From Candidatus Stahliibacteriota bacterium (GTDB taxonomy: Bacteria; Hydrothermota; Tepidihabitantia; SM23-42), in contig JAUWLY010000001.1 in the NCBI GenBank assembly GCA_030613445.1, positions 1-36,940 of the forward strand: DNA of 36,940 nt. Direction: 5' to 3'. Position 1 is the first letter of the stretch, and each line of letters opens with the position of its first letter. Positions 11,390-36,940 of the stretch are shown here, piece after piece. The position numbers were made by a program, and so were the translations under genes. The notes below the pieces were generated by a model. The model was not told the DNA's origin. It saw nothing but the letters and a program-made list of their open reading frames with translations, and did no database searches.

Positions 11390-13843
11390 ATGATAAAAAG
11401 ACCGATAATTACGAGCTTTATATTAATGCTTGGTTTTGCAGGCATTGTATATGCCCAACATCCAGGTGGGCCACCAGGAACAGGCTTTGCGGATTTTAAT
11501 GGCAAACTGAGCGGCAATGTATATGACGCTGATTATCAAGAACCGATTGAATATGCGAATATCGTGCTTTTCAGGCAAAAAGATAGCGCGCAGGTTACAG
11601 GCACAATAACTAATCCGCAGGGTTATTTTCAATTGACTGATATTAAGCCTGGTATGTATTATATGGAGATATCATTTATGGGTTATAAAACTCATACAAT
11701 CAAAGGCATTAAGATAACTCCGGCTAATCCGGAAGTTCACGCGGGAAATATTTCTTTAAAATCAACAGTTTTACCAGTAGAAGGTACTGTTGTTGAGGCA
11801 GAACGTCCTGTGATGTCTTATGAGATAGATAAAAAAGTAATAAATGTGAGTAGACAGACAACGTCTGTTTCTGGTACTGCGGTCGATGTCCTGGAAAATG
11901 TACCATCAGTAAATGTGGATATCGAAGGCAATGTAAGTCTGCGCGGCAGCGAAAATTTCACTGTGCTCATAAATAGTAGACCGACAATCCTGGACCCGAG
12001 TGATGCCCTGCAACAGATCCCTGCCAGCATGATAGATAACATCGAGATCATTACAAATCCTTCAGCCAAGTATGATCCTGAGGGTGTTTCTGGTATTATC
12101 AACGTTATCATGAAGAAAAAGACTCTGCAAGGAATAAGTGGTATTGCAAATATGAATGTCGGGCTGGATGAAAAATACGGAGGAGATTTTCTTGTTAGTT
12201 ATCGCACAGGAATAGCTAATTTGTTTCTTAGTGCTAGCTACCGCAAATATAGTTTCCCTGGTACGAGCACGATTGAAAACAGGACTACTAATAATGATAC
12301 TACTTCCTATGTATTATCAAGTGGACAAACTTCGCGTTGGTGGAAACCGTACGGTCTGCGCATGGGAGTGGACCTGCAACTCGGTATCAGAGACAAACTG
12401 AGCCTTGGAGGGCAATATCGTGCATGGGAAATGGAGCACATTAATGAACTCAATTACGATGAATGGTCAGAACCCGGTGATACTACTCATAATCTGTATC
12501 TGAGTCAAGATAACGGCGAATTCTCACACCAATATTATTCATTAACACTTGATCACGTACATCGCTTTGGAGAAAAGAACCACAACATAGCCTTGCGTGG
12601 CGTGTACAGTCATATCAAGAGAACTCGTCTCTCTTTTGATGAACTTCTTGATACTACAGACGTAATCACGAGTGGCCGTAGAAACGAAGAGCAGGGTCCA
12701 ACAATGTTTGCACAAATAAAACTTGATTACACCCTGCCTGTGCGAGAAAAAAGCAAATTCGAAGCAGGCTTTCAGGCCAGACCGAACCGCTCTGAAGAGG
12801 ACGCAAAAACATATGAATACGATACTACTACTGGAAACTATGAGTACGCGGAGCAGTTCAGCCATTCAACTAAGTATACTCGGGATATATACGCATTATA
12901 TACAATGTATTCAGGTACATGGCATAGATTTGGGTATCAAGGAGGACTGCGTAGTGAAATTACTCACCGTCTCATTGAAATGATTGGCGAGGATGAACAA
13001 TTCACTTTAGACCGATGGGATTATTTCCCGAGCTGCCATGTCTCGTATAAATTCCCAAAGGGCCAACAGCTTATGGCAAGCTATACGCGCCGGATTAGCC
13101 GTCCCAGACCGTGGTGGTTCGAACCATTCATAACCTGGTCAGATGCATATAATGTACGCAAAGGAAATCCCGAGCTTAACCCAGAATACATTGATTCATA
13201 CGAACTTGGTTTTCAGACATTCCTCGGCAAGAGTCTGATCTCACTCGAAACTTTTTACCGTAAAACCCATAATAGTATTGAACGCGTCCAGTCTTTGTAC
13301 AGCGATAATGTAATTCTGCATACGATTGAAAATGTCGGAACTGATAGGGTACTTGGTGTCGAAGGAATGTTTGACGTCAAATTAGCAGCATGGTGGAACA
13401 TCAATTGTACAGGGAATCTGTTTCAGCAATGGATAAAAGGTGAACTTTACGGACAGAGCTTTTCTGAAGAGAATTTTAACTGGAGCACAAGATTCAGTAA
13501 TGAATTTAGAGTGTTGCCGACAACCAAGCTCCAATTCAATGGAAGATTCCACAGCCCACGACTGTCAGTTCAGGGACAACGTGAAGCATATTTCACTATT
13601 GACGGAGCAATAAAACAGGGATTTTTTAATAAGAAACTGAGCGCAACTCTGCAAATAAGGGATATTTTTAGTACGAGCAAACGCGAATATACATCTGAAG
13701 GCGAGGACTTTTATTATTACAGGTATTCTGACCGCAAGTCGCCTGTCGTGATGCTTAGTATTAATTACAACTTTAATAATTACAAACAAGAACGCCGACG
13801 CGACGACACTGAGCAAGATTTCGAAGGCATGGAGGAGATGTAG
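11390..13843 (+). CDS. TonB-dependent-receptor-like outer-membrane beta-barrel protein with CarboxypepD_reg-like N-domain
   Basis: ORF 11366..13843. Signal peptide MIKRPIITSFILMLGFAGIVYAQ. N-domain LSGNVYD...ANIVLF...GYFQLTDIKPGMYYMEISFMGY. Plug-like AVDVLENVPSVNVDIEGNVSLRGS, followed by a long beta-rich region. Start 11390 is preferred over 11366 on the promoter argument. Confidence 0.8.
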   Translation: MIKRPIITSFILMLGFAGIVYAQHPGGPPGTGFADFNGKLSGNVYDADYQEPIEYANIVLFRQKDSAQVTGTITNPQGYFQLTDIKPGMYYMEISFMGYKTHTIKGIKITPANPEVHAGNISLKSTVLPVEGTVVEAERPVMSYEIDKKVINVSRQTTSVSGTAVDVLENVPSVNVDIEGNVSLRGSENFTVLINSRPTILDPSDALQQIPASMIDNIEIITNPSAKYDPEGVSGIINVIMKKKTLQGISGIANMNVGLDEKYGGDFLVSYRTGIANLFLSASYRKYSFPGTSTIENRTTNNDTTSYVLSSGQTSRWWKPYGLRMGVDLQLGIRDKLSLGGQYRAWEMEHINELNYDEWSEPGDTTHNLYLSQDNGEFSHQYYSLTLDHVHRFGEKNHNIALRGVYSHIKRTRLSFDELLDTTDVITSGRRNEEQGPTMFAQIKLDYTLPVREKSKFEAGFQARPNRSEEDAKTYEYDTTTGNYEYAEQFSHSTKYTRDIYALYTMYSGTWHRFGYQGGLRSEITHRLIEMIGEDEQFTLDRWDYFPSCHVSYKFPKGQQLMASYTRRISRPRPWWFEPFITWSDAYNVRKGNPELNPEYIDSYELGFQTFLGKSLISLETFYRKTHNSIERVQSLYSDNVILHTIENVGTDRVLGVEGMFDVKLAAWWNINCTGNLFQQWIKGELYGQSFSEENFNWSTRFSNEFRVLPTTKLQFNGRFHSPRLSVQGQREAYFTIDGAIKQGFFNKKLSATLQIRDIFSTSKREYTSEGEDFYYYRYSDRKSPVVMLSINYNFNNYKQERRRDDTEQDFEGMEEM

Positions 13844-13965
13844 CGTCCCGGCAGAAAAAAGATTCCACCCCGAATGCTATTGCTACGGGGCAGACAGGAT
13901 AAATAGGGCGAGAAGCGAAAAGAAATGACCGTAGACAGAAAAACAAAGAATGAAGCGTAGGGCAT

Positions 13966-13988
13966 CCCGCTGCTCAAAGAGCAGCGGG
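13966..13988 (+). terminator. 10-bp hairpin (H1 repeat module), possible terminator of 11390..13843
   Basis: CCCGCTGCTC-AAA-GAGCAGCGGG followed by ATAAATCTTCTT, a weak U-tract. Part of the recurrent GCGTAGGGCRTCCCG...CGGGATAAAT module. Confidence 0.4.
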
Positions 13989-14072
13989 ATAAATCTTCTT
14001 ACTCTATCTCCGATACACCGGTACGCCGTTACTCCGATACTGCCCTTTCAAGGTGAACACCTGGTACCCGTG
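13986..14072 (+). repeat. R-C repeat, short copy (pairs with 27939..28078 and 35029..35168)
   Basis: GGGATAAATCTTCTTACTCTATCTCCGATACACCGGTACGCCGTTACTCCGATACTGCCCTTTCAAGGTGAACACCTGGTACCCGTG is near-identical to the 3' 86 bp of the other two copies. Confidence 0.9.
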
Positions 14073-14086
14073 TCGAAATTACAATC

Positions 14087-14115
14087 TTGACATTCTATCC
14101 ATTACAACAATAATA
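14087..14115 (+). promoter_or_regulatory. promoter for 14132..15226
   Basis: TCTTGACA (-35 at 14087-14092), 17 nt, ATAATA (14110-14115), 16 nt before the ATG. Confidence 0.65.
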
Positions 14116-14131
14116 CGGTAGGGGAATATGG

Positions 14132-15226
14132 ATGGCAATAGAATTTCATTGTAGAGAATGCGATCAAATCATTGTTATAAAATACTTAAAACCTGGTGAA
14201 CAGGCAAAGTGCCGGAATTGCGGTGCAGAAAATATTATACCCGCGGATGCCACTGAGACAGATAAAGATCCTGAATATTACAAAATACCTCCCAAATATC
14301 ACAAAACATATCCGATCGAAAAACAAAGCGATATCGTCGAAGTAGATGTGCCAAGTAAACCTCGCAAACCTTTCCCGGGTTTTTTGCAAACTTTATTGCT
14401 ATTTTTCTATTACTTTGCAGGATGTATTATTTTACTTGTCAGTATCATTATCATCGGTAAAATCATTGGTCAACCGATACATAAAGACCCCATTATTATA
14501 TTTTTTGTTGCATCTGCAGCATGGGTCCTAATCCTGTACGCTGGCTATACGAACGTGAAAGAGACTTTTAAAACAGTTTTTTCATTAAAAGCATTTAAGT
14601 GGCTGCCTTTAGTACTAATTTGCCTCATGATGCTGGGCTTACGAGGATGTGTTGTCGGAATTGGATCGATTGCCATTAAACTGAATCCCCAGATTGAAGA
14701 ATTGAGTAGAATATTGATGGAGGACCTTGTAAAAATATATGCCCAGGGATTCATATGGTCATTTTTACTCATAGTCATTATTGCTCCGATATCGGAAGAG
14801 TTGTTTTTTCGGGGTTTGCTCTTACGCGGGTATCTGAAAAGATACTCTACCCCAGCAGCGATCCTTGTCACAGCACTTTTATTTGGCCTTATGCACGTTC
14901 AATACATAACGATAATATCGGGTTTTATTTCGGGGTTATTATTAGCCTGGCTGTATCTATTAACCCGTTCCCTTTGGCCTTGCATAATAGCGCATAGTTT
15001 CACTAACCTAACTGCAATAATAGTTTTTTATGGACTGTACAACCCTGCAATATTAAATGGCGCATCAATGGATAAAAATATCCTTGCTGAACTTATACTC
15101 ATTGCAATCGGTGTCGTGATGTGCACGGTTGGTATCGGGATTTTAATCAAGACTCCCCTAAAAAAGGAATTGGATCCCCCGATCCCTTCGACATATAACT
15201 CAGGACTACAGCAAGTCGGGGGATGA
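14132..15226 (+). CDS. CPBP-family intramembrane glutamic endopeptidase (CAAX protease-like) with N-terminal zinc ribbon
   Basis: 364 aa. CRECDQ...CRNCG zinc ribbon, multiple TM helices, and CPBP motifs SEELFFRG, FGLMHV and IAHSFTN. The last ~20 codons are homologous to an intergenic repeat (see findings). Confidence 0.8.
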   Translation: MAIEFHCRECDQIIVIKYLKPGEQAKCRNCGAENIIPADATETDKDPEYYKIPPKYHKTYPIEKQSDIVEVDVPSKPRKPFPGFLQTLLLFFYYFAGCIILLVSIIIIGKIIGQPIHKDPIIIFFVASAAWVLILYAGYTNVKETFKTVFSLKAFKWLPLVLICLMMLGLRGCVVGIGSIAIKLNPQIEELSRILMEDLVKIYAQGFIWSFLLIVIIAPISEELFFRGLLLRGYLKRYSTPAAILVTALLFGLMHVQYITIISGFISGLLLAWLYLLTRSLWPCIIAHSFTNLTAIIVFYGLYNPAILNGASMDKNILAELILIAIGVVMCTVGIGILIKTPLKKELDPPIPSTYNSGLQQVGG

Positions 15227-15333
15227 CAGTACCTGCAAGTCCCCCTGATTGACTCCCGCTGCGCGGCGAGTGATTACGTAATTAGTAATTGAGTAACTGG
15301 GTAATTAAATAAACACCCTCACCCACTCACCGG

Positions 15334-15407
15334 CAGATGTTAGATACCAGACCAGAGAGATTCTAGATACTAGATGCTCGATGCTAGTAAAAGACCTGGC
15401 ACCCGTG
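15334..15407 (+). repeat. heptamer micro-array module (WGATRCT units)
   Basis: CAGATGTTAGATACCAGACCAGAGAGATTCTAGATACTAGATGCTCGATGCTAGTAAAAGACCTGGCACCCGTG. Related copies at 17878, 23602, 26401 and 34625/34731. Confidence 0.8.
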
Positions 15408-15435
15408 CAAAATGCGTCATTGGGGTTACCCACAA

Positions 15436-15542
15436 CAGCAGATGCTTGATACTAGAATGAGTTGTGAGGGTCAGGTCTTGACCCCGTACGATTAACATTC
15501 TACGGGGCAGGCTTAGAGACATAAGGATTGAAGCGTAGGGCG
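15436..15542 (+). repeat. 107-bp repeat, copy 1 (pairs with 24611..24717)
   Basis: CAGCAGATGCTTGATACTAGAATGAGTTGTGAGGGTCAGGTCTTGACCCCGTACGATTAACATTCTACGGGGCAGGCTTAGAGACATAAGGATTGAAGCGTAGGGCG differs from 24611..24717 at only a handful of positions. Confidence 0.9.
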
Positions 15543-15601
15543 AAGACGGTATTGCGTATAGCCTAAAATATCGGAAAATTTCGATTCCCCGATTTATCGT
15601 G

Positions 15602-17822: not shown

Positions 17823-17877
17823 TCCGGCGCCGCGACACAAGTGAACAGGTGAACACCTGGTACTCGTACCCATAACG

Positions 17878-17944
17878 ACAGATGATAGATACTAGATGCT
17901 TGATGCTAGTAAAAGAACTGGATTCCCGTTTTCACGGGAATGAC
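17878..17944 (+). repeat. heptamer array plus H2 hairpin module
   Basis: CAGATGATAGATACTAGATGCTTGATGCTAGTAAAAGAACTGGATTCCCG-TTTTCA-CGGGAATGAC. The 7-bp stem is at 17922-17941. Confidence 0.8.
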
Positions 17945-17975
17945 TGCATACTGAAACCGTGTTGCGTGGGACCTC

Positions 17976-19485: not shown

Positions 19486-21441
19486 TTAACGAATTTTGAT
19501 TATTTTCTTTGTTATTACGCCGTCAATTTCTATGAAGTAGACACCTGGTGCGGGGTTGGAGGTGTGCACCTGGCGTCCGGTGATATCGAAGATCTTGTAT
19601 GTTTTGTCTTCAGGCAGTTGCAGTGGTCCAACAACAATCGTGGCAGTAATCGGTTTTTCTTGCACTGGTTTTGCAATAACCTCTTTGACACCTGGTACAC
19701 CATCAAATAATTCATTCCATGAATACCACTGCTTTACCTGAGTGTGAGCTGCTCTATAACAGCGCGCATAGCTTACACCAACGCAGGGCCAATCAGGATT
19801 CTCAATGGCAACGTTCGGACGAATCACCATGGAGCGGTAGGTACAACCGCCGGATCCAAAATCATACGTGATTGCCACGGAATTTGCTATCCTCATGATG
19901 CGCTGGGTAGTCAAATGATAATCTGCATTGAGCGAATCAGCAATTCGTTGGTATCGCCAGCAGCTAATCGGTGGATAGAGCAGGCGGTGATGGTTGGTCA
20001 CGGCAAGATTCCAGGATGAGCTAATTGGTGGCGGAATATAGTTATGCGACACGAAACGCATAGTATCCGCAATATGATTGATCTCAAGAATTGCCGCTGG
20101 GACAGGATGTGCGGCATCATATGATGAGTAACAATGAATATCATTCGAACGCCCATGTTCGGAGTGGATTTTCATTGAATCTATATCATAAATATCATGC
20201 ACACCACTGGCATCCGGGTCTATCAACTCAATGGCAAAGCGGCTCGATAAATAATCACCGAGTAAGGAATTGGGAGGTATAGAGTTCGTGTCAGGATGAT
20301 TACCTGTATTCTGGCCCAACCCAACACCACTTTCATTAAGACATGAGGATGCGCCAAAAACACCTGCCATGGTCACATTAAAGAACCGTTGCTCATTAGG
20401 ATCGCTGGATGAATAGGCAATGATCAAAGAAACATTTGCTAGTGTCGTATATAAACCCATCCGGCCATCGACATTTCGGGCAATGATGAATCCACCCTGT
20501 AAGGTATCGTCATTAGCGGTTGATTGTCCCCAACCAGAAAGACTTGAACAACCAAAAGTGGTCGTATCACCGCCCCCAGTTATCGCAAGCAAATCCTCTG
20601 TTGTCAAATCTCTGGCCAGAGTAGGATGATAAAGGCTTACTCCTTTAGCAGGTATGCCATCTATTACACCCTGTGCTTCATCCTGAAATTTTTGTGGCAC
20701 ATAATACTTTTCGCGGAACCAGGGAAGGTAGTCATTCTCATAGGAAGTTGGTGTTATTGCATGGTAGCTGGTATTTCCAATCCACTTATGGATATACACT
20801 GCCATTATTTCTTCAGCAAGTAAATAGCCATGGGCAAAACCCATTTCATAATTAGAGCCCCAGACCTGCAAATATTTTTGCGACGGCGGTCCTTTGGTGC
20901 GGAGCCGACCATTGCATACAACTGGTTGTGATGTAATGTCAGGAAGCGTGATATCATCAAGCCCGATACCTGCCTGTAAAGGTATGCGGCGTATTCTGAA
21001 GGCGATATACACTGGAGTCCCGGAGTAGCTGGACAATGAAACGGTCCGCTCGGTCCACGTTGAATCAGTAAGCAAAAATGTCTGCACAACATTGAAAGTC
21101 GGCATTTGGGGTGTTGAAGCGGTCGATACCATGATATCAAGTGAGCATGGGGTCGTACTTGTTGCTACGTACCAGAACCGAACTAATGTATCACTGAACT
21201 GAGGCAGGACACGCGGTGTGATCAGATAATCCAGGTTGGTATGGGAAAGTCCAGTATATGTTGTGTCATAGTAGCACGTTGCGGCATATACACCAGAATG
21301 TCCCTGGCACAGAGTGCGATACCACACAGCATCCAGAGCATCCTCATTAACGATAATCCAATTATCCGGAGGGAAATAGTTCTGTGTTTCAAAGGTTTCG
21401 GTCCAGGTACTGCAAAGGATCAAGGTCAGTATTGTTATCAT
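19486..21441 (-). CDS. T9SS-sorted protein: choice-of-anchor-J-like N-domain plus C45-like Ntn-hydrolase domain (paralog 1)
   Basis: 651 aa. VWGSNYEMGFAHGYLLAEEI and FGCSSLSGWG...GGFIIARNVDG resemble peptidase C45 / isopenicillin-N acyltransferase-like motifs (G.xYE.G..HG; GC[ST][ST]...RN.D). CTD KIFDITGRQV...PGVYFIEIDG...KKIIKIR. Confidence 0.7.
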   Translation of the reverse strand: MITILTLILCSTWTETFETQNYFPPDNWIIVNEDALDAVWYRTLCQGHSGVYAATCYYDTTYTGLSHTNLDYLITPRVLPQFSDTLVRFWYVATSTTPCSLDIMVSTASTPQMPTFNVVQTFLLTDSTWTERTVSLSSYSGTPVYIAFRIRRIPLQAGIGLDDITLPDITSQPVVCNGRLRTKGPPSQKYLQVWGSNYEMGFAHGYLLAEEIMAVYIHKWIGNTSYHAITPTSYENDYLPWFREKYYVPQKFQDEAQGVIDGIPAKGVSLYHPTLARDLTTEDLLAITGGGDTTTFGCSSLSGWGQSTANDDTLQGGFIIARNVDGRMGLYTTLANVSLIIAYSSSDPNEQRFFNVTMAGVFGASSCLNESGVGLGQNTGNHPDTNSIPPNSLLGDYLSSRFAIELIDPDASGVHDIYDIDSMKIHSEHGRSNDIHCYSSYDAAHPVPAAILEINHIADTMRFVSHNYIPPPISSSWNLAVTNHHRLLYPPISCWRYQRIADSLNADYHLTTQRIMRIANSVAITYDFGSGGCTYRSMVIRPNVAIENPDWPCVGVSYARCYRAAHTQVKQWYSWNELFDGVPGVKEVIAKPVQEKPITATIVVGPLQLPEDKTYKIFDITGRQVHTSNPAPGVYFIEIDGVITKKIIKIR

Positions 21442-21486: not shown

Positions 21487-21584
21487 GGGACCGCTAAAGC
21501 TGGAGTATGGAAGTTACAGAGTATCGGAGATACGGAGAAACACAAAAAAGAATAGTCCTTGGTCATTTTTGAAATATTGAATAA

Positions 21585-23540
21585 TTATCTTATTTTAATA
21601 ACTTTTTGAATTATCTGCCCGTCGATCTCTATGAAATAGATCCCTGGTGCGGGGTTATGGGTGTGCACCTGGCGCCCGGTGATATCATAGATCTTGTAAA
21701 TACCATCTTTTGGCATTTGTAATGGTCCGGATACAATAGTCGCCATGGGCATAGTTTTCTTTATAGGTTTCTGAACCACTTCTGCGACGCCTGGCACCCC
21801 GTCAAATAATTCATTCCAGGAATACCATACTTTACCCTGGGTATGGGCGGCTCTATAGCAGCGTGCGTAACTAACGCCAACACATGGCCAGTCTGGATGC
21901 TCGATTGCTATATTCGGACGTATAACCACGGAATGATAGGTACCACCACTCGTGCCTGAATTGTAACCTCGTGCAACCGTGTTGGCGATTGTCATTGCCC
22001 GCTGTGTGCTCAAATGAAAATCTGCGTTGAGCGAATCAGCGAGACGCAGGTAACGCGAGCAAAAAACCGGCGCGTAAAGCAAGCGGTCATGATTTGTTAC
22101 TGCGAGGTTCCATGCTGAGTTTATGGGTGGTGGTATGTAATTATGCGAAGCAAATCGCAGCGTGTCAGCAATATTATTGATTTCAAGAACCGCGCCTGGG
22201 ATGGGATGGGGTGCATCATAAGAAGAATAACAATGAATATCATTTGAACGTATATGCTCGGAATGGATTTTCATCGAATCGATATCGTAAATATCATTCA
22301 CACCGCTGCCATCCGGGTCTATCGCTTCAATTGCCAGCCGGTTCGCTAAAAGAGCACCAAGCAGCGAGTTCGGTGGTATCGCATTTGTGTCCGGATGATT
22401 ACCAGAATTGCTGCATAATCCTACTCCGTGCTCATTAAGACACGAAAAGACACCGAATACTCCGGCAAAGCTTACATTAAAAAATCTCTGCTCATTGGGA
22501 TCACTCGGCGAATAAGCAATTATCAGCGAACCATTGGCAAGAGTCATGTAAAGGCCAACTGTTCCATCGACGTTTCTTGCAATTATATAACCGCCCTGCA
22601 GGGTATCGTCACTGCTCGTTGATTCGCCCCATCCGGATAGACTCGAGCATTCAAAATCCTCTTCGTCGCCGGCGCCAGTCAATACGAGTATATCCTCGGC
22701 GATCAAATCCCTGTCCAGAGCCGGGTGATAAAGACTCACACCTTTAGCCGCAATACCGTCAATTACACCCTGGCCTTCTTCCTGAAATTTTGCCGGGATA
22801 TAGTACTTTTCGCGATACATAGGAAGATAAGTATATTCATAATACTCTGGGGTTACCGAATGATAGCTGGTATATCCTATCCATTTGTTTAGGTATACAC
22901 TCATGACCTCTGAAGCATGCAAATAGCCATGAGCAAAACCCATTTCATAATTAGAACCCCAGACCTGCATGTATCTTTGCGATGGTGGTCCTTTGGTGCG
23001 GAGCCGACCATTGCATACAACAGGCTGTGATGTAATATCAGGAAGTGTGATATCATCAATCCCGATAGCTGCCTGCAAAGGTATGCGGCGTATTCTGAAG
23101 GCAATATAGATCGGCGTCCCGGTGTAGCTAGATAATGAAACGGTCAGCTCGGTCCATGCTGAATCAGCAAGCAAGAATGTCTGGACACTACTGAACGTCG
23201 TCATGTCGGGTATTGATGCGGTCGATACCATGATATCAAGCGAGCATGGAAAGGTACTTGTTGCCATGCACCAGAACTGAACTAATGTATCACTGGACTG
23301 AGGCAGGACACGCGGTGTGATCAGATAATCCAGGTTCGTATGGGAAAGTCCACTATATGTTGTATCATAGTAGCATGTTGCAGCATACACACCAGAATGT
23401 CCCTGGCACAGACTGCGATACCACACAGCGTCTAGTGCGTCCTCGTTGACTACAAGCCAGTTATCCGGCGGAAAATAATTTTGTGTTTCAAAGGTTTCGG
23501 TCCAGGCACTGCAAAGGATCAAGGTCAGTATTGTTATCAT
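21585..23540 (-). CDS. T9SS-sorted choice-of-anchor-J-like plus C45-like Ntn-hydrolase protein (paralog 2)
   Basis: ORF 21585..23594 trimmed to ATG 23540 (MITILTLILCSAW...), the same N-terminus as paralog 1. The extension would start inside the promoter (23559-23587). Collinear with 19486..21441 and clearly paralogous (high identity by eye). Confidence 0.7.
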   Translation of the reverse strand: MITILTLILCSAWTETFETQNYFPPDNWLVVNEDALDAVWYRSLCQGHSGVYAATCYYDTTYSGLSHTNLDYLITPRVLPQSSDTLVQFWCMATSTFPCSLDIMVSTASIPDMTTFSSVQTFLLADSAWTELTVSLSSYTGTPIYIAFRIRRIPLQAAIGIDDITLPDITSQPVVCNGRLRTKGPPSQRYMQVWGSNYEMGFAHGYLHASEVMSVYLNKWIGYTSYHSVTPEYYEYTYLPMYREKYYIPAKFQEEGQGVIDGIAAKGVSLYHPALDRDLIAEDILVLTGAGDEEDFECSSLSGWGESTSSDDTLQGGYIIARNVDGTVGLYMTLANGSLIIAYSPSDPNEQRFFNVSFAGVFGVFSCLNEHGVGLCSNSGNHPDTNAIPPNSLLGALLANRLAIEAIDPDGSGVNDIYDIDSMKIHSEHIRSNDIHCYSSYDAPHPIPGAVLEINNIADTLRFASHNYIPPPINSAWNLAVTNHDRLLYAPVFCSRYLRLADSLNADFHLSTQRAMTIANTVARGYNSGTSGGTYHSVVIRPNIAIEHPDWPCVGVSYARCYRAAHTQGKVWYSWNELFDGVPGVAEVVQKPIKKTMPMATIVSGPLQMPKDGIYKIYDITGRQVHTHNPAPGIYFIEIDGQIIQKVIKIR

Positions 23541-23558
23541 AGAAATCTCCAGTATGTA

Positions 23559-23587
23559 AATTATGGTCCTATTGGATGAAATGTCAA
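23559..23587 (-). promoter_or_regulatory. promoter for 21585..23540
   Basis: Minus strand: CCTTGACA (-35 at 23587-23582), 17 nt, ATAATT (23564-23559). Same layout as the paralog's promoter. Confidence 0.65.
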
Positions 23588-23601
23588 GGGACACAAAACG
23601 A

Positions 23602-23676
23602 CAGATATTAGATACGAGATGCTTGATGCTAGAGAAGAATAGTAATTAAGTAACTAAGTGATTATTTCACCCCTCA
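23602..23676 (+). repeat. heptamer array plus AGTAATTAAGTAACT...TTTCACCCCTCA module
   Basis: CAGATATTAGATACGAGATGCTTGATGCTAGAGAAGAATAGTAATTAAGTAACTAAGTGATTATTTCACCCCTCA. Close copy at 34654-34720 and a looser one at 15263-15331. Confidence 0.8.
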
Positions 23677-23777
23677 AATAACGTCTAGCACCCCATCTTG
23701 AAGTCGCAAAATGCGACTTCAAGTGTTTGCATTCACTCCTCGTAAGGGGGTATTTTTATATCTGACGCAGGTTTCAA

Positions 23778-24470: not shown

Positions 24471-24610
24471 AACAATTTAGTGCATATGGGGGCCTCTCAT
24501 TTTATTCCCCGTAGCTACGCGACGGGGCCTCTCGCTATGCTCGAGATTTACAACAGGCGATATCTTCGACCTCTCACTACACTCGAGATCTTCGACAGGC
24601 AGCGATGCAA

Positions 24611-24717
24611 CAGCAGATCTTAGATACTAGAATGAGTTGTGAGGGTCAGGTCTTGACCCCGTACGATTAACATTCTACGGGGCAGGCTTAGAGACATAAG
24701 CAATGAAGCGTAGGGCG
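24611..24717 (+). repeat. 107-bp repeat, copy 2 (pairs with 15436..15542)
   Basis: Near-identical to 15436..15542. Contains the H3 hairpin CCCCGTA-12 nt-TACGGGG (24657-24682) and the GGGTCA-GGTCT-TGACCC inverted repeat. Confidence 0.9.
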
Positions 24718-24826
24718 TCCCGGAGGAATAGGATTCCACAAGACAGCGTAGGACGTTGAGCAAGAAGAAAATAGGTGTTAAAGCCTTTGTCCATTTATTA
24801 GCGTCTAATTAATGAGGAGGTAAAAA

Positions 24827-26308: not shown

Positions 26309-26400
26309 AAACCAGGAACCAGGAAAAGCGAAGAGCGAAAAGGCACAGCAGGTGGGGTCAAATCCCCAGTATACACGATAACGAGGGCAGGCAATAACGG

Positions 26401-26469
26401 CAGATGTTAGATACTAGATACTTGATGCTAGTAAAAGAACTGGATTCCCCGATCGCGTCGGGGAATGAC
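26401..26469 (+). repeat. heptamer array plus H2 hairpin module
   Basis: CAGATGTTAGATACTAGATACTTGATGCTAGTAAAAGAACTGGATTCCCCGA-TCGCG-TCGGGGAATGAC. The 9-bp stem is at 26444-26466. Confidence 0.85.
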
Positions 26470-26552
26470 AAATCAAGGGATGGCGGTAAAAGGCCCTCGC
26501 TGTACTCGCGGGATAAATATGAGAAGTGAACAGGTGAACACCTGGTATACTC

Positions 26553-27214: not shown

Positions 27215-27721
27215 TTATTCTTTGCTAAAACCGATTTTGCGTTTCGCTTTCTCAGGTGGAATCATGAGCTGTCGGATAGCTTCGAATACCGCCTTAAACT
27301 GAACGTCATATTTTTTCTCAAGAGCATCAATTTTTCGCATAAGATCTTTATGCGTTGCTAATACTTCTCGTAGCCTAATAAATGTCCTTACAACCAGTAC
27401 GCTTGTTTGAACAGCTATTTGACTGTTCAATACCGAAGCAAGCATAACTGCACCGTGCTCAGTAAATGCATATGGTAGATATGGTGCATATTTGAGAGAA
27501 CTAAGGTGGTCGCAATTTGCGACCACTTCTTGTTTCTCTTCTTTGGTAAGTTGAAACATAAAATCAATGGGAAACCTTCGTTTATTCCGTCTGACTTGCT
27601 CATTTCACCTTTTTGTCGACACTCCATAGAGCTTTGCTAGATCTCTATCTATTATAACCTTGTGACTACGGATAATCAAAATCTTTTTTTCTATAATTTC
27701 TTGTGATATGGTTTTCTTCAT
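27215..27721 (-). pseudogene. ORF6N/KilA-N-like DNA-binding protein gene interrupted by one in-frame TGA
   Basis: ORFs 27605..27802 (from ATG 27721, MKKTISQEIIEKKILIIRSHKV...LYGVSTKR) and 27215..27559 are in the same frame. A single TGA (27605-27607) replaces the Leu of the paralog (ETRVLIQAVKRN vs STKR*NEQVRRN). Collinear with 28860..29378. Confidence 0.65.
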
Positions 27722-27817
27722 TTTACTACTTTCCTCCTTTTCTACAGAATTAAAATAATAAAGATATGAACCACTACAGCATGATGCTGCAAAGCGTTTC
27801 ATACCTTCTCGGTACTG

Positions 27818-27865
27818 ATTATATCCAGGGGTTTGATAAAGTCAAGACGCCGCTTGAGCGGCGTC
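27818..27865 (-). promoter_or_regulatory. hairpin-plus-promoter junction module for the interrupted ORF6N gene
   Basis: Minus strand: GACGCCGC-TCAA-GCGGCGTC hairpin (27865-27846) abuts TTGACT (27845-27840), then 16 nt and TATAAT (27823-27818), followed by a ~95-nt leader starting GAGAAGGTATGAA. Confidence 0.7.
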
Positions 27866-27938
27866 GATTGCGGTGATAAACAGAAAAATTACAGAGATTG
27901 CTTCGTCCTTCGATAAACTCAGGACTCGCAATGACCCC

Positions 27939-28078
27939 GATATCTTCGACGAGACTTACAGCCTTTCGCCCTGCTCAAGATTTACAGCAGACGGGATAGA
28001 TCTTCTTAGTCTATCTCCGATACACCGGTACGCCGTTACTCCGATACTGTCCTTTCAAGGTGAACACCTGGCACTCAC
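27939..28078 (+). repeat. R-C repeat, 140-bp copy (pairs with 35029..35168; 3' part with 13986..14072)
   Basis: GATATCTTCGACGAGACTTACAGCC...AGATTTACAGCAGACGGGATAGATCTTCTTAGTCTATCTCCGATACACCGGTACGCCGTTACTCCGATACTGTCCTTTCAAGGTGAACACCTGGCACTCAC. About 90 percent identical by eye to 35029..35168. Confidence 0.9.
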
Positions 28079-28125
28079 GCCCAACATTAGGATAAAAGCG
28101 TAGCACGAAGTACATAGGGTGATCA

Positions 28126-28863
28126 TTAGTAGGCATATTTTTTGATGATTGCGGAGGTTATGTAGTGGCTGACGATTGTGGTCTTTAAATTGCTGTATTC
28201 TAATTTTAATCTCTGTGCTTCGATAACATTTTTTCTGGTTAAATATAAACCGGTATACTGGTGATAATAACCATCAGTTTCGTGTTGGAACCAGTGGTGT
28301 GCTATGCTAAAACCGCCTTCACATGTAAGCCACAAAAGATTTGAATCAGGACGCTTAGAAAAATCACCACCATGATCGAAAGGACGTGCTCCTAAACGAG
28401 TTTTGGAGAAACCGACGTGCAGTGAATAGAGCCACATTCCTGCCTTTTTGTTCGGGCTGATGACTACATCTTTAATGTGCCATAATTTCTTTAATGCCTT
28501 ATTTATTGCAACTGAATCGGTCAGATTAATATATACTTTTTTGCCTTCGATAATAAAAGATCCATCGTCAACAGAGTAATTTTTCATATAATCGTCCATA
28601 AGTAACCATCTTTTAAAGTGTTCTAATTTTTCTTGTCGTCTTAGACTTTTTAAGATACTGTCAAGTCTTACTATTGTATTCACTCTTACTGCAACATCAT
28701 CTGCAAACCTTGCTTGTCGATTATCTCCACCATAATTGTTGACAAATATAGCATCAAAATATGCAGCATGCCATTTGCATTCCATTGTTGCAGTAGCATA
28801 AACAAGTGAGAGATTAAAAGGTAAAAGTAAAAGGTTAATACATATTTTTGCTAACTTGCTCAT
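28126..28863 (-). CDS. hypothetical exported/membrane-anchored protein, translationally coupled to ORF6N gene
   Basis: 245 aa. N-terminal hydrophobic segment KICINLLLLPFNLSLVYA. The start ATG overlaps the upstream TGA stop (ATGA, 28860-28863). No family recognised. Confidence 0.6.
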   Translation of the reverse strand: MSKLAKICINLLLLPFNLSLVYATATMECKWHAAYFDAIFVNNYGGDNRQARFADDVAVRVNTIVRLDSILKSLRRQEKLEHFKRWLLMDDYMKNYSVDDGSFIIEGKKVYINLTDSVAINKALKKLWHIKDVVISPNKKAGMWLYSLHVGFSKTRLGARPFDHGGDFSKRPDSNLLWLTCEGGFSIAHHWFQHETDGYYHQYTGLYLTRKNVIEAQRLKLEYSNLKTTIVSHYITSAIIKKYAY

Positions 28864-29378
28864 TTTTTTCTGTATTTATAAAATCCGATTCTTTTTTGCG
28901 GTTTTTTTGGTGGGGTCATAAGCTCGCGGATCGCATCGAATATCGCCTTGATTTCCACATCGTGCTTTTCTGTTTTTCGTTCGAGTTGGTCTAATTTGTG
29001 AACTAATTCTTTATGCGTAGATAGAATTTTGCGTAATTTTACAAAAGCACGCATTATGGCGATGTTAACTTGGATAGCCCTTCTACTTCGTAGAACACTG
29101 GAAAGCATCGCAACTCCCTGCTCTGTAAAGGCATAAACATTGGGCGCATGTTTGAGTTTTGAACTTATCACAAATTGTGATAAGTTTAATATCTCTGCTC
29201 GGGTTAATGAAAACATAAAATCATCGGGAAATCTCTCAATATTACGTTTTACAGCCTGAATTAACACTCTTGTTTCAACTTGATAAAGCTCAGCAAGGTG
29301 CGTACTGATCATTATCTTATGACCACGGATAACCAGTATATTTTCTTTGATTATTTCTTTTGGTACTATTTTTTTCAT
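28860..29378 (-). CDS. ORF6N/KilA-N-like DNA-binding protein (intact paralog)
   Basis: 172 aa. ILVIRGHKIMISTHLAELYQVETRVLIQAVKRNIERFPDDFMFSLTRAE...YAFTEQGVAMLSSVLRS..A..VNI.IMRAF fits the ORF6N domain pattern, followed by a coiled-coil tail. Confidence 0.75.
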   Translation of the reverse strand: MKKIVPKEIIKENILVIRGHKIMISTHLAELYQVETRVLIQAVKRNIERFPDDFMFSLTRAEILNLSQFVISSKLKHAPNVYAFTEQGVAMLSSVLRSRRAIQVNIAIMRAFVKLRKILSTHKELVHKLDQLERKTEKHDVEIKAIFDAIRELMTPPKKPQKRIGFYKYRKK

Positions 29379-29475
29379 TTTACTTCTTTCCTGCTTTTGT
29401 ACATTATGAAAATCATAAAGGTATGAACCACTTGCACCACCATGTTACAGAACCCTTCATACCTTCTCAGTGCTG

Positions 29476-29526
29476 ATTATATCTAAAGATTCAATAAAGT
29501 CAAGACGCCGCGGCGATTTCATCGCC
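29476..29526 (-). promoter_or_regulatory. hairpin-plus-promoter junction module for 28860..29378
   Basis: Minus strand: GGCGAT-GAA-ATCGCC hairpin (29526-29512) and the CGCCGCGGCG palindrome precede TTGACT (29503-29498), then 16 nt and TATAAT (29481-29476), then the leader GAGAAGGTATGAA. Confidence 0.7.
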
Positions 29527-29793
29527 TTCCACCACGCATAAAGGCGGACAGGCGCAATGACAAAACTAGATTCCCCGGTTAAACCGGAGAATGACAGAAG
29601 AGGATACGGGAAATGACCCCATTAGATGCTGCGTATCTAACGGGGTAAACGGGAGTCCCGCTGAAATAATATATTTCACCCCTCACCTTTTTCCTCTCCC
29701 CTCAAGGGGAGAGGAAATGTTCTGTAACAGATTCCAGAGGATGAATTTTTCTCTGAGAGTATTAGATATTCACCGAATTCTCCTTGCTGTTAA

Positions 29794-33345: not shown

Positions 33346-34509
33346 CTATTTGACTTTAATTACCTTCTTTGACAGTTTACCATCAATTTCAATGAAATAA
33401 ATTCCTGGAGAAAGACGTGCGGCATCGACTTCACGCCCGGTGATGTCGAAAATGCGGCAGGTTTTATCCTCTGACAGATGTAATGGACCAGTAAGAATCG
33501 TCGGGATGATGTATTTGCTCGACACAATGTCCTGTTTCTCCTGCTCAATTCCAGTTACCACCTGTCCTTCCTCGTTAATTGCACAAACGTTGGATGGCCA
33601 CCCACCGATCGCGTAGAGGTTGGTGCCCACGACACCAATATCAAGTTCCCGCCGCGCAAAAAGCATAGGATTTTCAGTAAACCAAGTATCCCCCACTGGA
33701 TCATAGACCTCCACAATATTTACTTCAGCCCTTATGGCGTTGCCCAGTTTCCCACATGCAAGGTCTGAGCCATTCAATCCACCACACACATACATCTGTC
33801 CATTAACGACACTCGCTTCTGGATGATAACGGGTTGTGGGGATATTTGCCTTCACCTGCCAGGGTGTACCTCCAACCGTATCGGCTGCTGGTTCATATTC
33901 CCATGTTTCTGTAAAATTACCACTGGACCCGCGCCCAGCTGCAACATAAATCTTACCACCTATTACCTCTGATGCGAAGAAAAAACGATTTGATTGCATA
34001 GGTGTTTTATATGACCATGTATTGGATGTAGTGTCATATTCCTCAACAATGGTACCATTGGCATGAAATCCACCGATCGCGTATATTTTTCCATCCACAA
34101 CCTCTGCACCGAGACCATCCCTACCAACTTGCAGGGGTGCCGCGGATGACCATGAGTCGCTCGCAGGATCATATATTTCAACTGTGTTATGTGTGGTGTT
34201 GGAGCTACTCCACCCACCAATTGCATATATTTTATTATCCAAAACACACACGGCGAGAAACCCACGCGGTGTTGGCATAGGAGATTTATTGATCCACGTA
34301 TTAGACACTGGATCGTATGCTTCTACCACACCGGTTGCAGTATTTGGCAGACCACCTGTCCAACCGCCTATGCAGTAAACAGTATCATTAACCACGCCAA
34401 TGCCCAGGCCATCCCGTCCAGTCGGCATATCTGTCTTTTGCGTCCATTGTATTGTTCCTGTCAATGAGACAACGAACAGAAACAACAATAACGTTATTCT
34501 AGTCTTCAT
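33346..34509 (-). CDS. Kelch-repeat protein with T9SS sorting domain
   Basis: ORF 33346..34530 trimmed to ATG 34509 (GGGGAGGA RBS; MKTRITLLLFLFVVSLTG signal peptide). Six Kelch-like blades (VYCIGGW, IYAIGGW, IYAIGGF, IYVAAGR, MYVCGGL, LYAIGGW). CTD RIFDITGREV...PGIYFIEIDG...KVIKVK. Confidence 0.85.
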   Translation of the reverse strand: MKTRITLLLFLFVVSLTGTIQWTQKTDMPTGRDGLGIGVVNDTVYCIGGWTGGLPNTATGVVEAYDPVSNTWINKSPMPTPRGFLAVCVLDNKIYAIGGWSSSNTTHNTVEIYDPASDSWSSAAPLQVGRDGLGAEVVDGKIYAIGGFHANGTIVEEYDTTSNTWSYKTPMQSNRFFFASEVIGGKIYVAAGRGSSGNFTETWEYEPAADTVGGTPWQVKANIPTTRYHPEASVVNGQMYVCGGLNGSDLACGKLGNAIRAEVNIVEVYDPVGDTWFTENPMLFARRELDIGVVGTNLYAIGGWPSNVCAINEEGQVVTGIEQEKQDIVSSKYIIPTILTGPLHLSEDKTCRIFDITGREVDAARLSPGIYFIEIDGKLSKKVIKVK

Positions 34510-34535
34510 AAATCCTCCCCTTCTTAACATAGAAT

Positions 34536-34563
34536 AGTTTAAAGAAAATGGTGATTAAGTCAA
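34536..34563 (-). promoter_or_regulatory. promoter for 33346..34509
   Basis: Minus strand: TCTTGACT (-35 at 34563-34558), 16 nt, TAAACT (34541-34536). Confidence 0.5.
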
Positions 34564-35187
34564 GATAATGGATACTAGACCAGAGAGATTCCAGTCCATT
34601 ACACATCGTGTAACGAGACCAGGGATGCTAGACAAGATAGATGCTTGATACTAGATACTTGATGCTAGAAAAGAATAGTAATTGAGTAATTAAGTAACTG
34701 AGTGATTATTTCACCCCTCACCCATAACAACAGATGTTAGATACGAGATTCTTGATACTAGTAAAAGAAGTGGATTCCCCAGCTTCTATGAAATGGAGAC
34801 TGGGAGAAACGGAGAAGTGGAGTCCTGCCCGGAATGACAGAGAAAAAGGAACTGGATCCCCCGATCAAGTCGGAGGATGACAACGATATTATAGATCCCC
34901 CTGATCCCTTCGACATTTAACTCAGGACTACAGCAAGCCGTGGGATGACCCCATACGATTAACATCCTACGGGTTTCTCGTTACACTCGAGATGTTCGAT
35001 CTCTCACTAGATTCATCTCGCTGCCCTCGATATCTTCGACGAGACTTACAGCCTCTCGCTACACTCGAGATTTACAACAGGCGGGATAAATCTTCTTAGT
35101 CTATCTCCGATACACCGGTACGCCGTTACTCCGATACTGCCCTTTCAAGGTGAACACCTGGCACTCACTGTTAATGACTGTTATATT
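34564..35187 (+). repeat. ~620-bp intergenic mosaic made only of repeat modules
   Basis: In order: GATACTAGACCAGAGAGATTCCAG; heptamer arrays (34625-34670, 34731-34760); AGTAATTGAGTAATTAAGTAACT...TTTCACCCCTCACCC; H2 hairpins (34856-34878 and a decayed one near 34771-34838); a block homologous to the CPBP gene tail (34891-34949); a decayed H3 hairpin (34949-34974); the 140-bp R-C copy (35029-35168). Confidence 0.85.
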
Positions 35188-36940
35188 CTATTTGGATTTT
35201 TTTTCGAGTGCTTTTGCTTTTTTATTGTACAAAGCGGCGAGTTTGGTTTCGCCGATGTCTTGGAGTATTTCTGAATACTCTTCATAATTTTTGTTCAATA
35301 ATATAACCCGATCAAGTTCAGTCATTAACTTAACTGCCTGTTCCATATATTCCTCAGCTTTTTGAAGATCTTGCATCATTGCATATATTTTTGCATACGC
35401 AAACGCGCAATCAGCCATGCCTGCTTTATTGCCGATCTCGTTTGCCAAGGACCAACCTTTATTTAGATAATCTAATGTTTTATCAAAAGACTCGCCTTTC
35501 AAACGCTTGACATTCGCAAGATGGTTGTAGGCAGTCGTTAGCAGTTGTTTATTGCCCAGTTCCTTGAAGATCTTCACTGCACGCAGCAGGTGTTCTTCGG
35601 CTTTATCGAGTTCTTTCGTATGAATGTACAAAACAGCCAGATTGCCAAGAGCAGTGCTGGTACCTGTTTTGTCACCAATGTTCTCACTGATCCTGAGGTA
35701 TTTGTGGAAATATTCATGTGCTTTATCGTTTTCATCTTTGCCCATGTAGAATTTAGCCAGGTTGCTATATGCCATACCTTCGCCGCGTTTATCTCCGATC
35801 TCCAGACTGATACGTAATGCTTTCAGATGAAAATCTAGTGCTTTTTGCGACTTATCTTGATATGAATACATGATACCAAGATTATTACAGGTGTGACCTA
35901 TATTTTTCTTGTCACCGATCTGTTCAAGGATAGCCAGGCTTTGCTCGTTCAGATCGATCGCTTTTTTGGAATCACCTTTCATGTGATATACAATGCCCAA
36001 AAGATAGGTAACATTACCGATAAACCGTTTGTCATTCAGCTCTTCAAGAAGAATTTTGCTTTGTTTGTACATCTCAATTGCTTTGTCATAATCGCCATGG
36101 TTGCGAAAGATCCCACCAAGGCTGATATTTGCAGTAGCCCTGATTTTCTTCACACGATCATTAATACCGACTTTTTCGGCTATGCCCAGAGCTTTTTCAA
36201 TTGCCTGCTGTGCATCAGCTATAGCACCCTGTACCTCATAGATTGCACCGCGCACTAAATATATCTCAGCCTGTTCAATAAGCATGTCATCTGAATCCCC
36301 AGATAATTTTATTAAAGCTTTATCAAGTATGTCAAGCGCATCAGTGAACTTGCTCTGGTGCCAGTAAACTCTCGCTGTTTTGCGCTGTGCCCGTACACGT
36401 ACGATCATATCCTTGCTCTGTTTAGTTACTGATGCATATGATTCGATCGCCCCATCATAGTCACCGCGTATTGCATGAATATCACCCAAAGCTTCATAGG
36501 CCTTCAGCTGAATCCATTTATGTTGATCAGTTGCTTCAGCAAAACCGTTGATAACAGAAACGACCTTTTCGAAATATTTGATCGCTTCTTCATTAGCATA
36601 CCGCTCTTTAGCATGGAAACCTGCTTTTTCCAGCCATTCGATAGCCTTATCCTGGTCATTACTATTTGTGTAATGGTGAGCAAGGAGTTCGGTGAATTCA
36701 TCTATCCGTTCTGATAATAATTCCTCAACGAGTTCTGCAACCTGACCGTGTAATTGTCGACGGTTTTTCTTGGGCAGACTATTATATGCAACCTCCTGGA
36801 CCATCGGGTGTTTAAAAATGTACTCCAGCTCCGGTTCTTTTGCTAATAAACGAATGTATTCCAGCTCTTCAAGGGTTGCTAGGTGAACACTCATCATTAA
36901 ACTCTCGACTTTGGTCAAGCGCTCGAGCAAAGGTGCAAGG
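35188..36940 (-). CDS. TPR-repeat C-terminal region of a large NTPase/TPR signalling protein (5'-truncated by window edge)
   Basis: Frame is open to position 36940. The N-terminal visible part (FKHPMVQEVAYNSLPKKNRRQLHGQVAELV) resembles the helical region after AAA/STAND NTPase domains. It is followed by more than 10 TPR units (A...Y..AL.I....GD..G). Stop at 35188. Confidence 0.8.
   Translation of the reverse strand, partial: LAPLLERLTKVESLMMSVHLATLEELEYIRLLAKEPELEYIFKHPMVQEVAYNSLPKKNRRQLHGQVAELVEELLSERIDEFTELLAHHYTNSNDQDKAIEWLEKAGFHAKERYANEEAIKYFEKVVSVINGFAEATDQHKWIQLKAYEALGDIHAIRGDYDGAIESYASVTKQSKDMIVRVRAQRKTARVYWHQSKFTDALDILDKALIKLSGDSDDMLIEQAEIYLVRGAIYEVQGAIADAQQAIEKALGIAEKVGINDRVKKIRATANISLGGIFRNHGDYDKAIEMYKQSKILLEELNDKRFIGNVTYLLGIVYHMKGDSKKAIDLNEQSLAILEQIGDKKNIGHTCNNLGIMYSYQDKSQKALDFHLKALRISLEIGDKRGEGMAYSNLAKFYMGKDENDKAHEYFHKYLRISENIGDKTGTSTALGNLAVLYIHTKELDKAEEHLLRAVKIFKELGNKQLLTTAYNHLANVKRLKGESFDKTLDYLNKGWSLANEIGNKAGMADCAFAYAKIYAMMQDLQKAEEYMEQAVKLMTELDRVILLNKNYEEYSEILQDIGETKLAALYNKKAKALEKKSK

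Follow-up and report, generated by a model that had tools for sequence, protein, structure and literature searches.

A patchwork of short intergenic repeats, among them predicted CGTC-tagged REP hairpins, between a Kelch and a TPR gene of a Candidatus Stahliibacteriota bacterium

The spacer described here (positions 34510-35187) lies in a 36,940-nt stretch of contig JAUWLY010000001.1 from a Candidatus Stahliibacteriota bacterium, which we call the window; our coverage of this genome is that 37 kb. On one side the spacer adjoins the start of a Kelch beta-propeller gene (33346-34509, minus strand; Kelch_1, E 4e-53), whose protein returned no record in an exact-sequence look-up with two start choices, and on the other the stop codon of a tetratricopeptide repeat (TPR) gene (35188-36930, minus strand; TPR_12, E 2e-50). 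Many genes around it code for outer-membrane proteins or for proteins sorted by the type IX secretion system (T9SS), and the closest homologues of a TonB-dependent receptor encoded at 11366-13843 carry the label candidate division WOR-3. The window was compared with three independent assemblies, L001 (a metagenome-assembled genome from NCBI, 'Candidatus Stahlbacteria'), L002 (NCBI; a strain 98% identical to the window) and L008 (ENA), with relatives at ~80% identity (L003, L006 and L007) and with metagenome contigs (L051, L067, L071 and L118).

The spacer is a genuine patchwork of short repeats, far above chance. By blastn against the other spacers of the window (E<1e-3), 486 of its 678 nt (72%) find a match, the top value among the large window spacers, compared with 0% in 20 shuffles; against the window plus L001-L003 (E<=0.05) the matching part is 563 nt (83%). 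An earlier note on this DNA, made from the letters alone, had described the spacer as composed entirely of concatenated modules, at least eight of them, with no open reading frame (ORF) and an unusually dense repeat load. The density, the count and the lack of coding sequence are borne out, with at least ten modules and no ORF longer than 59 aa; 'entirely' goes too far, as both ends and a few short linkers are unique. Between these ends, positions 34563-35168 are tiled with segments that recur in other intergenic regions (repeat finders and blastn). The covered share of intergenic DNA, which the note had suggested estimating, is 35% of the window's 7.5 kb (spacer-versus-spacer blastn, E<1e-3), and the eight other mosaics that it named (13844-14131, 15227-15601, 17823-17975, 23588-23777, 24471-24826, 26309-26552, 27866-28125 and 29527-29793) all hold shared modules, at 26-56% coverage. 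Its concern about assembly is answered by the same modules in L001, L002 and L008, which are thus not the artefact of one assembly.

Reading from the Kelch gene, the unique segment 34510-34562 (minus strand) carries the ribosome-binding site, 5' untranslated region and promoter side of that gene, with GGAGGA upstream of the ATG at 34509 (minus strand) and a promoter-like TTGACT-16-TAAACT at 34563-34536 (minus strand; promoter scan). The modules that follow are annotated on the plus strand. A short module 'A' (GATACTAGACCAGAGAGATTC..., 34563-34594; 84% identical to 15335-15366 and 91% to L008 66-97) precedes an array of TAGATAC/TTGATGC heptamers (34624-34672; Tandem Repeats Finder (TRF) period 7/14), which matches 15343-15391, 17877-17913, 23600-23632 and 26402-26435. 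There follow an octamer array of AGTAATTG units plus TTTCACCCCTCA (34677-34720; TRF period 8/16; 97% to 23641-23676; family D19) and a second heptamer module (34720-34780; 90% to 17868-17927, 89% to 26394-26450), which runs into the A-rich left flank (TAGTAAAAGAAGTGGATTCCCC) of the first of three modules of the CGTC type of repetitive extragenic palindrome (REP), taken up below. This first REP (34770-34842) is interrupted, its arms GGATTCCCC (left) and CCGGAATGAC (right) being split by a GGAG octamer array at 34790-34822. The second (34848-34886; CTGGAT-CCCCCGA-TCAAG-TCGGAGG-ATGACA) is full length, with one C.A mismatch in the stem, and the third (34888-34952) is a decayed long-loop copy with arms GATCCCCC and GGGATGAC, a 32-nt filler CCCTTCGACATTTAACTCAGGACTACAGCAAG and an unpaired stem, 92% identical to 15176-15227, 90% to L001 339-389 and 85% to L002 3455-3509. 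Other small hairpins, CCCGTAC..GTACGGG and three copies of TCTCG..CGAGA, come next: the module TGACCCC(A/G)TACGATTAACATyCTACGGG (34946-34973; family D14; 93% to 15479-15506 and 24654-24681), whose stem is broken here, and TCTCGyTrCaCTCGAGAT, repeated three times at ~40-nt spacing with TTCGAC spacers (34976-35083; families D12 and D13; 94% to 24527-24559). The last module is a 147-nt block (35022-35168; 92% to 27932-28078) including an 84-nt core at 35081-35164, with CGGGATAAAT, then the octamer array TCTCCGAT ACACCGGT ACGCCGTT ACTCCGAT, then AGGTGAACACCTGG; the 19 nt by the TPR stop codon (35169-35187, minus strand) are again unique.

Modules recur in differing orders between spacers, as the note had said in likening them to a vocabulary. 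The long-loop hairpin stands before the octamer and heptamer arrays at 15161-15400 and after them at 34624-34950, and the TCTCG hairpins stand before the CCCGTAC hairpin at 24527-24681 and after it at 34946-35083. Of arrays with period 7 or 8, TRF finds 16 in intergenic DNA (7.5 kb) versus about one in coding DNA; the 8-nt arrays are of the AGTAATTG and GGAGnnnn/TCTCCGnn types, and the 7-nt arrays are built from TAGATAC/TTGATGC. The 84-nt core has further copies at 13984-14067 and 27992-28074 of the window and at 428-511 of L001, all four being 97.6% identical, whereas the genes of these two species are 78-91% identical; it contains no ORF and has no unusual fold (z -0.49), and either recent spread or strong constraint could explain its conservation. 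For the spacer as a whole, folding is no better than in shuffles (z -1.2 and -1.4), no terminator-like site was found, Rfam gave nothing at the gathering threshold nor at E<=1, and blastn against plasmids and phages gave no match; two module patterns searched in IMG/VR viral contigs were not found there.

By their sequence, the hairpin modules are assigned to the published superfamily of CGTC-tagged REPs, because they match its published definition and score with a covariance model made independently of them. In such REPs the tag is an unpaired CGTC/TGTC (or CCTC), the stem has 8-9 bp and begins with AT, the loop measures 4-5 nt and the tail fits CCA (PMC3733652); the superfamily has Neisseria dRS3 as CGTC-1 and includes Rickettsia RPE-4/-6 (Di Nocera, De Gregorio and Rocco 2013, BMC Genomics 14:522; PMC3733652). 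The hairpin found here has conserved feet, GAACTGGAT-stem-loop-stem-ATGACA, and its reverse complement reads TGTC-ATTCCCCGA-loop-TCGGGGAAT-CCA, for example TGTC-ATTCCCCGA-CGCGA-TCGGGGAAT-CCAG. A TGTC tag (reverse complement TGTC-AT...) is present at 34848-34886, 26436-26474, 29562-29600 and 15167-15231, with the variants AGTC at 17914-17949 and GGTC at 34888-34952. The stems ATTCCCCGA, ATCCCCCGA, ATTCCCCGG and ATTCCCGT fit 8-9 bp with A-T / T-A as first pairs, and the short loops of four window copies are TCGCG, TCAAG, TTAAA and TTTC (4-5 nt); the CCA tail is there too, plus-strand CTGGAT being ATCCAG on the tagged strand, with CTAGAT in one copy. In an alignment of ten hairpin copies, 86% of cells are paired and compensatory changes occur at 4 of the 9 stem pairs; none of 500 shuffles reaches this covariation score, and sliding the partner columns collapses the pairing.

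For the covariance model, R1, we used 26 hairpins from metagenomes, which have 16 different stems, and no window copies. The model finds four full-length matches in the window (E 4e-6 to 4e-11), at 26436-26474 (44.3 bits), 34848-34886 (42.1 bits, E 2e-10), 29562-29600 (38.9 bits) and 17914-17949 (27.7 bits), and a weak one to the long-loop copy at 15174-15224 (E 0.26), all five on the plus strand; with two decayed copies, these make up the REPs of the 37 kb. The spacer itself holds the full copy 34848-34886 and the two interrupted or decayed ones (34770-34842 and 34888-34952), which do not adopt the family fold, the interrupted one scoring just 7.4 bits. The full copy is 100% identical to L051 across 30 nt and forms the family hairpin at -5.1 kcal/mol, with a z of only -0.66; the copies at 26443 (z -3.7) and 17921 (z -3.5) are intact. 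Positions 17921-17940 are the exact dRS3 pattern ATTCCC-N8-GGGAAT (ATTCCCGTTTTCACGGGAAT), and the spacer copies are variants of the ATCCCC-N11-GGAGGAT type.

A gapped-pattern scan recovered the exact hairpin from at least 120 metagenome contigs of 37-57% GC, and it is common in sediment and groundwater metagenomes. The fetched loci contain 234 perfect GAT-stem-loop-stem-ATGAC hairpins with ~40 different stems, and no protein family recurs beside them (at most 5 of 120 loci); the number of contigs, the covarying stems and the lack of a recurrent neighbour together fit a dispersed non-autonomous element. Most of these copies stand in an inverted doublet beside a sister hairpin, for example GTCATTGTCCGGCTTGACCGGACAATCCAG or GTCATTCCCGCGAAGGCGGGAATCCAG: pair layouts are tail-to-tail in 102 cases, head-to-head in 23 and head-to-tail in 7, that is, 125 inverted versus 7 direct. 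CGTC REPs are known from five phyla, Proteobacteria, Chlorobi, Bacteroidetes, Spirochaetes and Thermotogae, at tens to thousands of copies per genome, and clusters are rare except in Neisseria and Wolbachia (PMC3733652); the literature that we searched does not report the family for the present phylum. The Neisseria form GTCATTCCCGCGCAGGCGGGAATCCAGACC occurs at 100% identity in N. gonorrhoeae chromosomes, and its first 27 nt are also exact in Photobacterium, Aeromonas, Cupriavidus, Azospirillum and others. As side observations, the dRS3-type 27-mer stands at 16 places in a 274-kb cyanophage, Microcystis phage MaAM05 (MW495066.1), and the PLSDB entries NZ_CP119140.1 and NZ_CP119142.1 are N. gonorrhoeae chromosomes filed as plasmids.

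Only the hairpin modules match metagenome loci; all others are clade-specific. A metagenome pattern joining the heptamer module to a hairpin arm was not found, so the clade-specific modules appear to be absent from JGI data, and a 26-mer of the 84-nt core occurs in a single contig among GTDB species representatives, L001. The relatives at ~80% identity lack these modules; L003 and L007 have 7-8-nt arrays of their own, and L007 also its own CGTC-like hairpin.

The modules show a strong polarity. The note had placed every module of the spacer in plus orientation, which is right for all but two: the octamer arrays at 34790-34822 and 35102-35138 match others only as reverse complements (3926-3958, for the first of them, 573-607 and 21502-21532). 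Among spacer-to-spacer matches in the window's right arm (past 10.6 kb), 34 are co-oriented and none is inverted, and the flanking genes there point both ways. RATGAC feet or junctions lie on the plus strand in 13 cases and on the minus strand in 3. The three REP units within 34770-34952 run head to tail, and the window is without inverted pairs; this layout is unusual for the family, since published CGTC REPs are mostly head-to-head dimers, head-to-tail ones being negligible (PMC3733652), and the metagenome copies are mostly inverted doublets. In that paper the dimer layout is a tendency in how units are arranged and does not enter into what defines the family. A replication origin was considered as the cause of the polarity at 10517-11365, 849 bp of non-coding DNA where the genes switch from all minus to mostly plus and the cumulative GC skew has its minimum, and was rejected because no DnaA-box cluster was found at this 10.5-11.4-kb switch; the window holds one perfect DnaA box (10943-10951) and 13 with one mismatch, versus 12.3 expected. 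The orientation flip in the left arm was likewise rejected as independent evidence of replication polarity, as the module TGGGGTCAAAyC follows gene orientation.

The latter module is an observation in its own right. It lies on the minus strand at 746-770, 700-720, 2793-2812, 3965-3984, 5743-5762 and 6815-6834 and on the plus strand at 26350-26365, as well as at L001 5293-5305, L002 3316-3330 and L007 2305-2320, and in many cases TTTTTTGAG and an octamer array of the GGAG type come after it. Unlike the other modules, it stands 8-50 nt (172 nt in L002) past a stop codon and in the sense of the upstream gene in ~10/10 cases, and it is a possible gene-3'-end element. A stretch of ~130 nt in L007 lies between two inverted copies (GGGGTCAGCCCTCGAAA), a layout resembling a miniature inverted-repeat transposable element (MITE). 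Elsewhere in the window, 4124-4260 and 5575-5711 (minus strand) form a 137-nt repeat, 94% identical, with a small ORF for a ~22-aa hydrophobic peptide (MSYGIIIIIFVIIAWIVYEVVR); 19486-21441 and 21585-23594 are tandem choice-of-anchor-J / Cleaved_Adhesin-like secreted paralogues of 71-74% nucleotide identity; and 28860-29511 and 27215-27853 share a partial duplicate of an ORF6N gene and its upstream region.

Comparison of the assemblies reveals turnover at the mosaics. The strain L002 lacks window positions 13964-15587, including a CAAX-protease gene, and the divergence starts inside a mosaic at the GCGTAGGGC motif. The lost gene (Rce1-like, 14132-15226) has its last ~20 codons and its stop codon (3' end 15161-15226) inside a long-loop REP module, and similarity to the L006 homologue stops at ~15169. 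Upstream of the receptor gene, a 57-nt indel (window 11246-11302 versus L002 595-605) is flanked by 7-nt direct repeats, GCTTCGC. The gene downstream of the TPR gene is another one in L001, and so is the mosaic there, which shares with that of the window nothing but the AGGTGAACACCTGG end next to the TPR stop. Units are also found inside other units. Five of the ten aligned hairpins have loops of 4-6 nt, four share the 32-nt filler and one holds the GGAG octamer array; two copies in the spacer and the one at 15167-15231 hold loop fillers of 32-45 nt; and in L001 the TGGGGTCAAATC module is split by a 25-nt relative of the hairpin filler, four other copies of this module being uninterrupted.

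Candidate enzymes were met outside the window. Probing 690 kb with E. coli RayT (tblastn) gave two Y1-type genes, none in the clade of the window. The first, in the hairpin-bearing contig L118 (1469-1972, minus strand), encodes a RAYT (REP-associated tyrosine transposase; NF047646, 87 bits versus a cut-off of 80) and is flanked by a different hairpin, inverted GGTTCAAGTTnnnAACTTGAACC-CGCAG at 1428-1455 and 2000-2030; a third such hairpin, at 3270-3313 of the same contig, forms a doublet with a CGTC REP. This RAYT family is found at 55-77% identity across Nitrospirota, Brocadiales, Thermodesulfobacteriota and Patescibacteria, in many cases on contigs below 2 kb, and its best 120 matches include no WOR-3-labelled protein. 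The second, L071 5269-6243 (minus strand), encodes 324 aa with a Y1_Tnp (IS200-like) domain and a DnaA C-terminal helix-turn-helix, 3 kb from a CGTC REP.

With moderate confidence, we propose that the spacer is an intergenic array of the type of the intergenic mosaic elements of Neisseria (NIMEs) and bacterial interspersed mosaic elements (BIMEs), a zone where small non-autonomous repeats copied in trans accumulate and recombine. Shown by the data are the repeats themselves, their membership of the family, covariation in the stem, polarity, nesting and indels between strains. Such an array would have two layers, an old and widespread one of CGTC-tagged REPs (TGTC tag, AT-start 8-9-bp stem, TCAAG-like loop, CCA tail) and a young, clade-specific one of 7-nt/8-nt periodic arrays, other small hairpins and the 84-nt core. 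Copying in trans would be strand-specific and, for the REPs, would most plausibly depend on an HUH/Y1 enzyme (RAYT/IS200-like) that acts on single-stranded hairpins and whose gene lies elsewhere in the genome. Later units would land beside or inside earlier ones, in hairpin loops or after the ATGAC foot, so that one orientation would be kept and arrays would lengthen at sites that tolerate insertion; recombination between arrays, homologous and illegitimate, would then reshuffle modules and create differences in gene content between strains. The array probably has no sequence-specific cellular function: it looks like a repeat graveyard and not like a structured functional unit, because two of its three REP copies no longer fold and the whole spacer folds no better than shuffles. 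It is tempting to go further and to speculate that the mosaics record a strand-polar, perhaps replication-coupled, independent mobilisation of 25-150-nt units via CGTC-REP loops and the ATGAC foot, a proposal that we regard as doubtful.

Several points weigh against copying in trans. No dedicated transposase has been found for CGTC REPs (PMC3733652), the 37-kb window contains no Y1/RAYT or other transposase, and none is tied to this lineage. We found neither clean target-site duplications nor orthologous sites, empty and filled, that had exact element boundaries. The 32-nt filler may be an old long-loop variant and not a recent insertion, as it is also present in the distant metagenome contig L067, and the identity of the 84-nt core above that of the genes could mean purifying selection, hence function. 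Strand-specific insertion is read from the polarity, which would equally result from duplication on a local scale or from selection acting against inverted repeats.

Other explanations share part of this evidence. The array might promote recombination, as in the NIME hypothesis, and be kept because it speeds up the exchange of neighbouring surface-protein genes. The mosaics do flank predicted secreted or surface proteins (T9SS-sorted proteins, the TonB-dependent receptor, LVIVD and Kelch propellers, choice-of-anchor-J paralogues), breakpoints of strain gene content fall inside them, and the same idea has been published for Neisseria dRS3 arrays (PMC1797815). However, the window has no recombinase gene, REPs are a minority of the modules and a single one of those in the spacer is intact, and passive homologous recombination between dispersed repeats would also yield an association with variable genes; we therefore consider selection for exchange possible but not probable. 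A scheme without any transposition, in which slippage makes the 7-8-nt arrays, gene conversion or unequal recombination spreads the modules and selection against inverted repeats orients them, accounts for the excess of intergenic over coding arrays (16 versus about one), for array sequences that differ among relatives, for the direct orientation of all copies within 26 kb and for the lack of a transposase. It seems unlikely to us, as module lengths and unit numbers are fixed between copies, copies in the window, L001 and L008 adjoin non-orthologous genes, and local conversion cannot explain an identical hairpin in contigs of 37-57% GC with unrelated flanks.

We give little credence to a functional RNA or regulatory role, whether as stabilisers or terminators in the TPR 3' untranslated region, as sites upstream of the Kelch gene or as small RNAs. 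Transcription downstream of genes is frequent for REPs (PMC3733652), between species the 84-nt core is better conserved than the genes are, and the separate TGGGGTCAAAyC module does follow stop codons in sense; but module orientation is independent of that of the flanking genes, module positions vary relative to promoters and stop codons, and the spacer offers no terminator-like site, Rfam match or excess folding energy. It is very improbable that the spacer is an assembly artefact, with short metagenome reads joined into a chimera or a repeat wrongly resolved. Repeats evidently do break assemblies here, close relatives assembling solely into contigs of a few kb (4-9 kb), and the neighbour downstream of the L001 TPR gene is a different one, but the modules are short (<150 nt) and diverged (80-97%), modules and several of their junctions are seen again in three independent assemblies of other samples, and the window and L001 agree on the end next to the TPR stop. 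Further candidates were rejected on anatomy: a MITE, as no inverted repeat brackets the spacer or its modules and one indel only has a 7-nt direct repeat; integron attC sites or cassettes, as each spacer contains many different modules and the conserved hairpin lacks the core sites R''(RYYYAAC) and R'(GTTRRRY); and CRISPR arrays and tRNA-derived elements.

The hairpin family and the array concept were already known. New features are the phylum, how abundant the exact hairpin is in environmental metagenomes, a strictly one-way layout with units head to tail, copies with a long loop or an interruption, and a fast-evolving, clade-specific vocabulary with 7-8-nt periodicity. CGTC REPs, dRS3 included, are a widespread class without an identified mobilising enzyme, and NIME arrays were described as Neisseria-specific; the same hairpin class in NIME-like mosaics of a candidate phylum and in metagenomes extends the known range, and the one-way layout could help to work out how the units are copied. 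The mosaics probably explain the few-kb contigs of close relatives and mark sites where strain gene content changes. If strand-polar mobilisation were true, they would be a naturally occurring setting in which to find the enzyme moving CGTC REPs, and would drive the exchange of surface genes in an uncultured phylum as a NIME-like engine.

How do these mosaics compare with described systems? The note had found no described repeat family to match, and this now applies to part of the modules: the hairpins are assigned to the CGTC-tagged REPs, and the others (7-8-nt arrays, 84-nt core, other hairpins) match nothing described. With CGTC REPs the hairpins share the (C/T)GTC tag, the 8-9-bp AT-start stem, in four window copies the 4-5-nt loop, the CCA tail, an intergenic position and the lack of an adjacent transposase; they differ in being singletons or head-to-tail, in the 30-45-nt loop fillers of several copies and in what would be a new phylum. 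The REPIN-RAYT systems of Bertels and Rainey have the same hairpin type (Neisseria master 21-mer ATTCCCGCGCAGGCGGGAATC), and the Neisseria dRS3-type 21-mer is tied to a Group 2 RAYT (bioRxiv 10.1101/2021.07.10.451892), whereas inverted REP pairs less than 130 bp apart are absent from the window and its clade, and the window is without a RAYT gene. The BIME-like character that the note had proposed holds at the level of architecture: E. coli BIMEs are also intergenic mosaics of REP palindromes and short linker motifs, but their REPs are GTAG-tagged and alternating, with a small fixed set of linkers, and those of the window are (C/T)GTC-tagged and co-oriented. Cyanobacteria reportedly have intergenic tandem heptamers (short tandemly repeated repetitive sequences, STRR) and small dispersed repeats, with units of ~21-27 nt nested in repeats and hairpins; their sequences and lineage are unrelated to ours, octamer arrays are an addition of the present mosaics, and the mobility of small units is here putative. 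The closest described architecture is the NIME array of Neisseria (Parkhill 2000, Bentley 2007) rather than the BIME of E. coli. The regular dRS3-RS-dRS3 alternation of NIMEs, in which dRS3 brackets 50-150-bp RS elements, does not occur here: in the spacer the REPs lie together at 34770-34952 and do not bracket the modules that make up the remaining ~450 nt. Further differences are that REPs are a minority of the modules and stand head to tail instead of inverted, some of them decayed or interrupted, that all units share one orientation, that 7-8-nt arrays are prominent and that the non-REP vocabulary is unrelated in sequence. Common to both are long intergenic mixtures of dRS3-type palindromes with many families of short repeats, variation of the arrays between strains, surface-protein genes as neighbours and the coincidence of arrays with recombination breakpoints.

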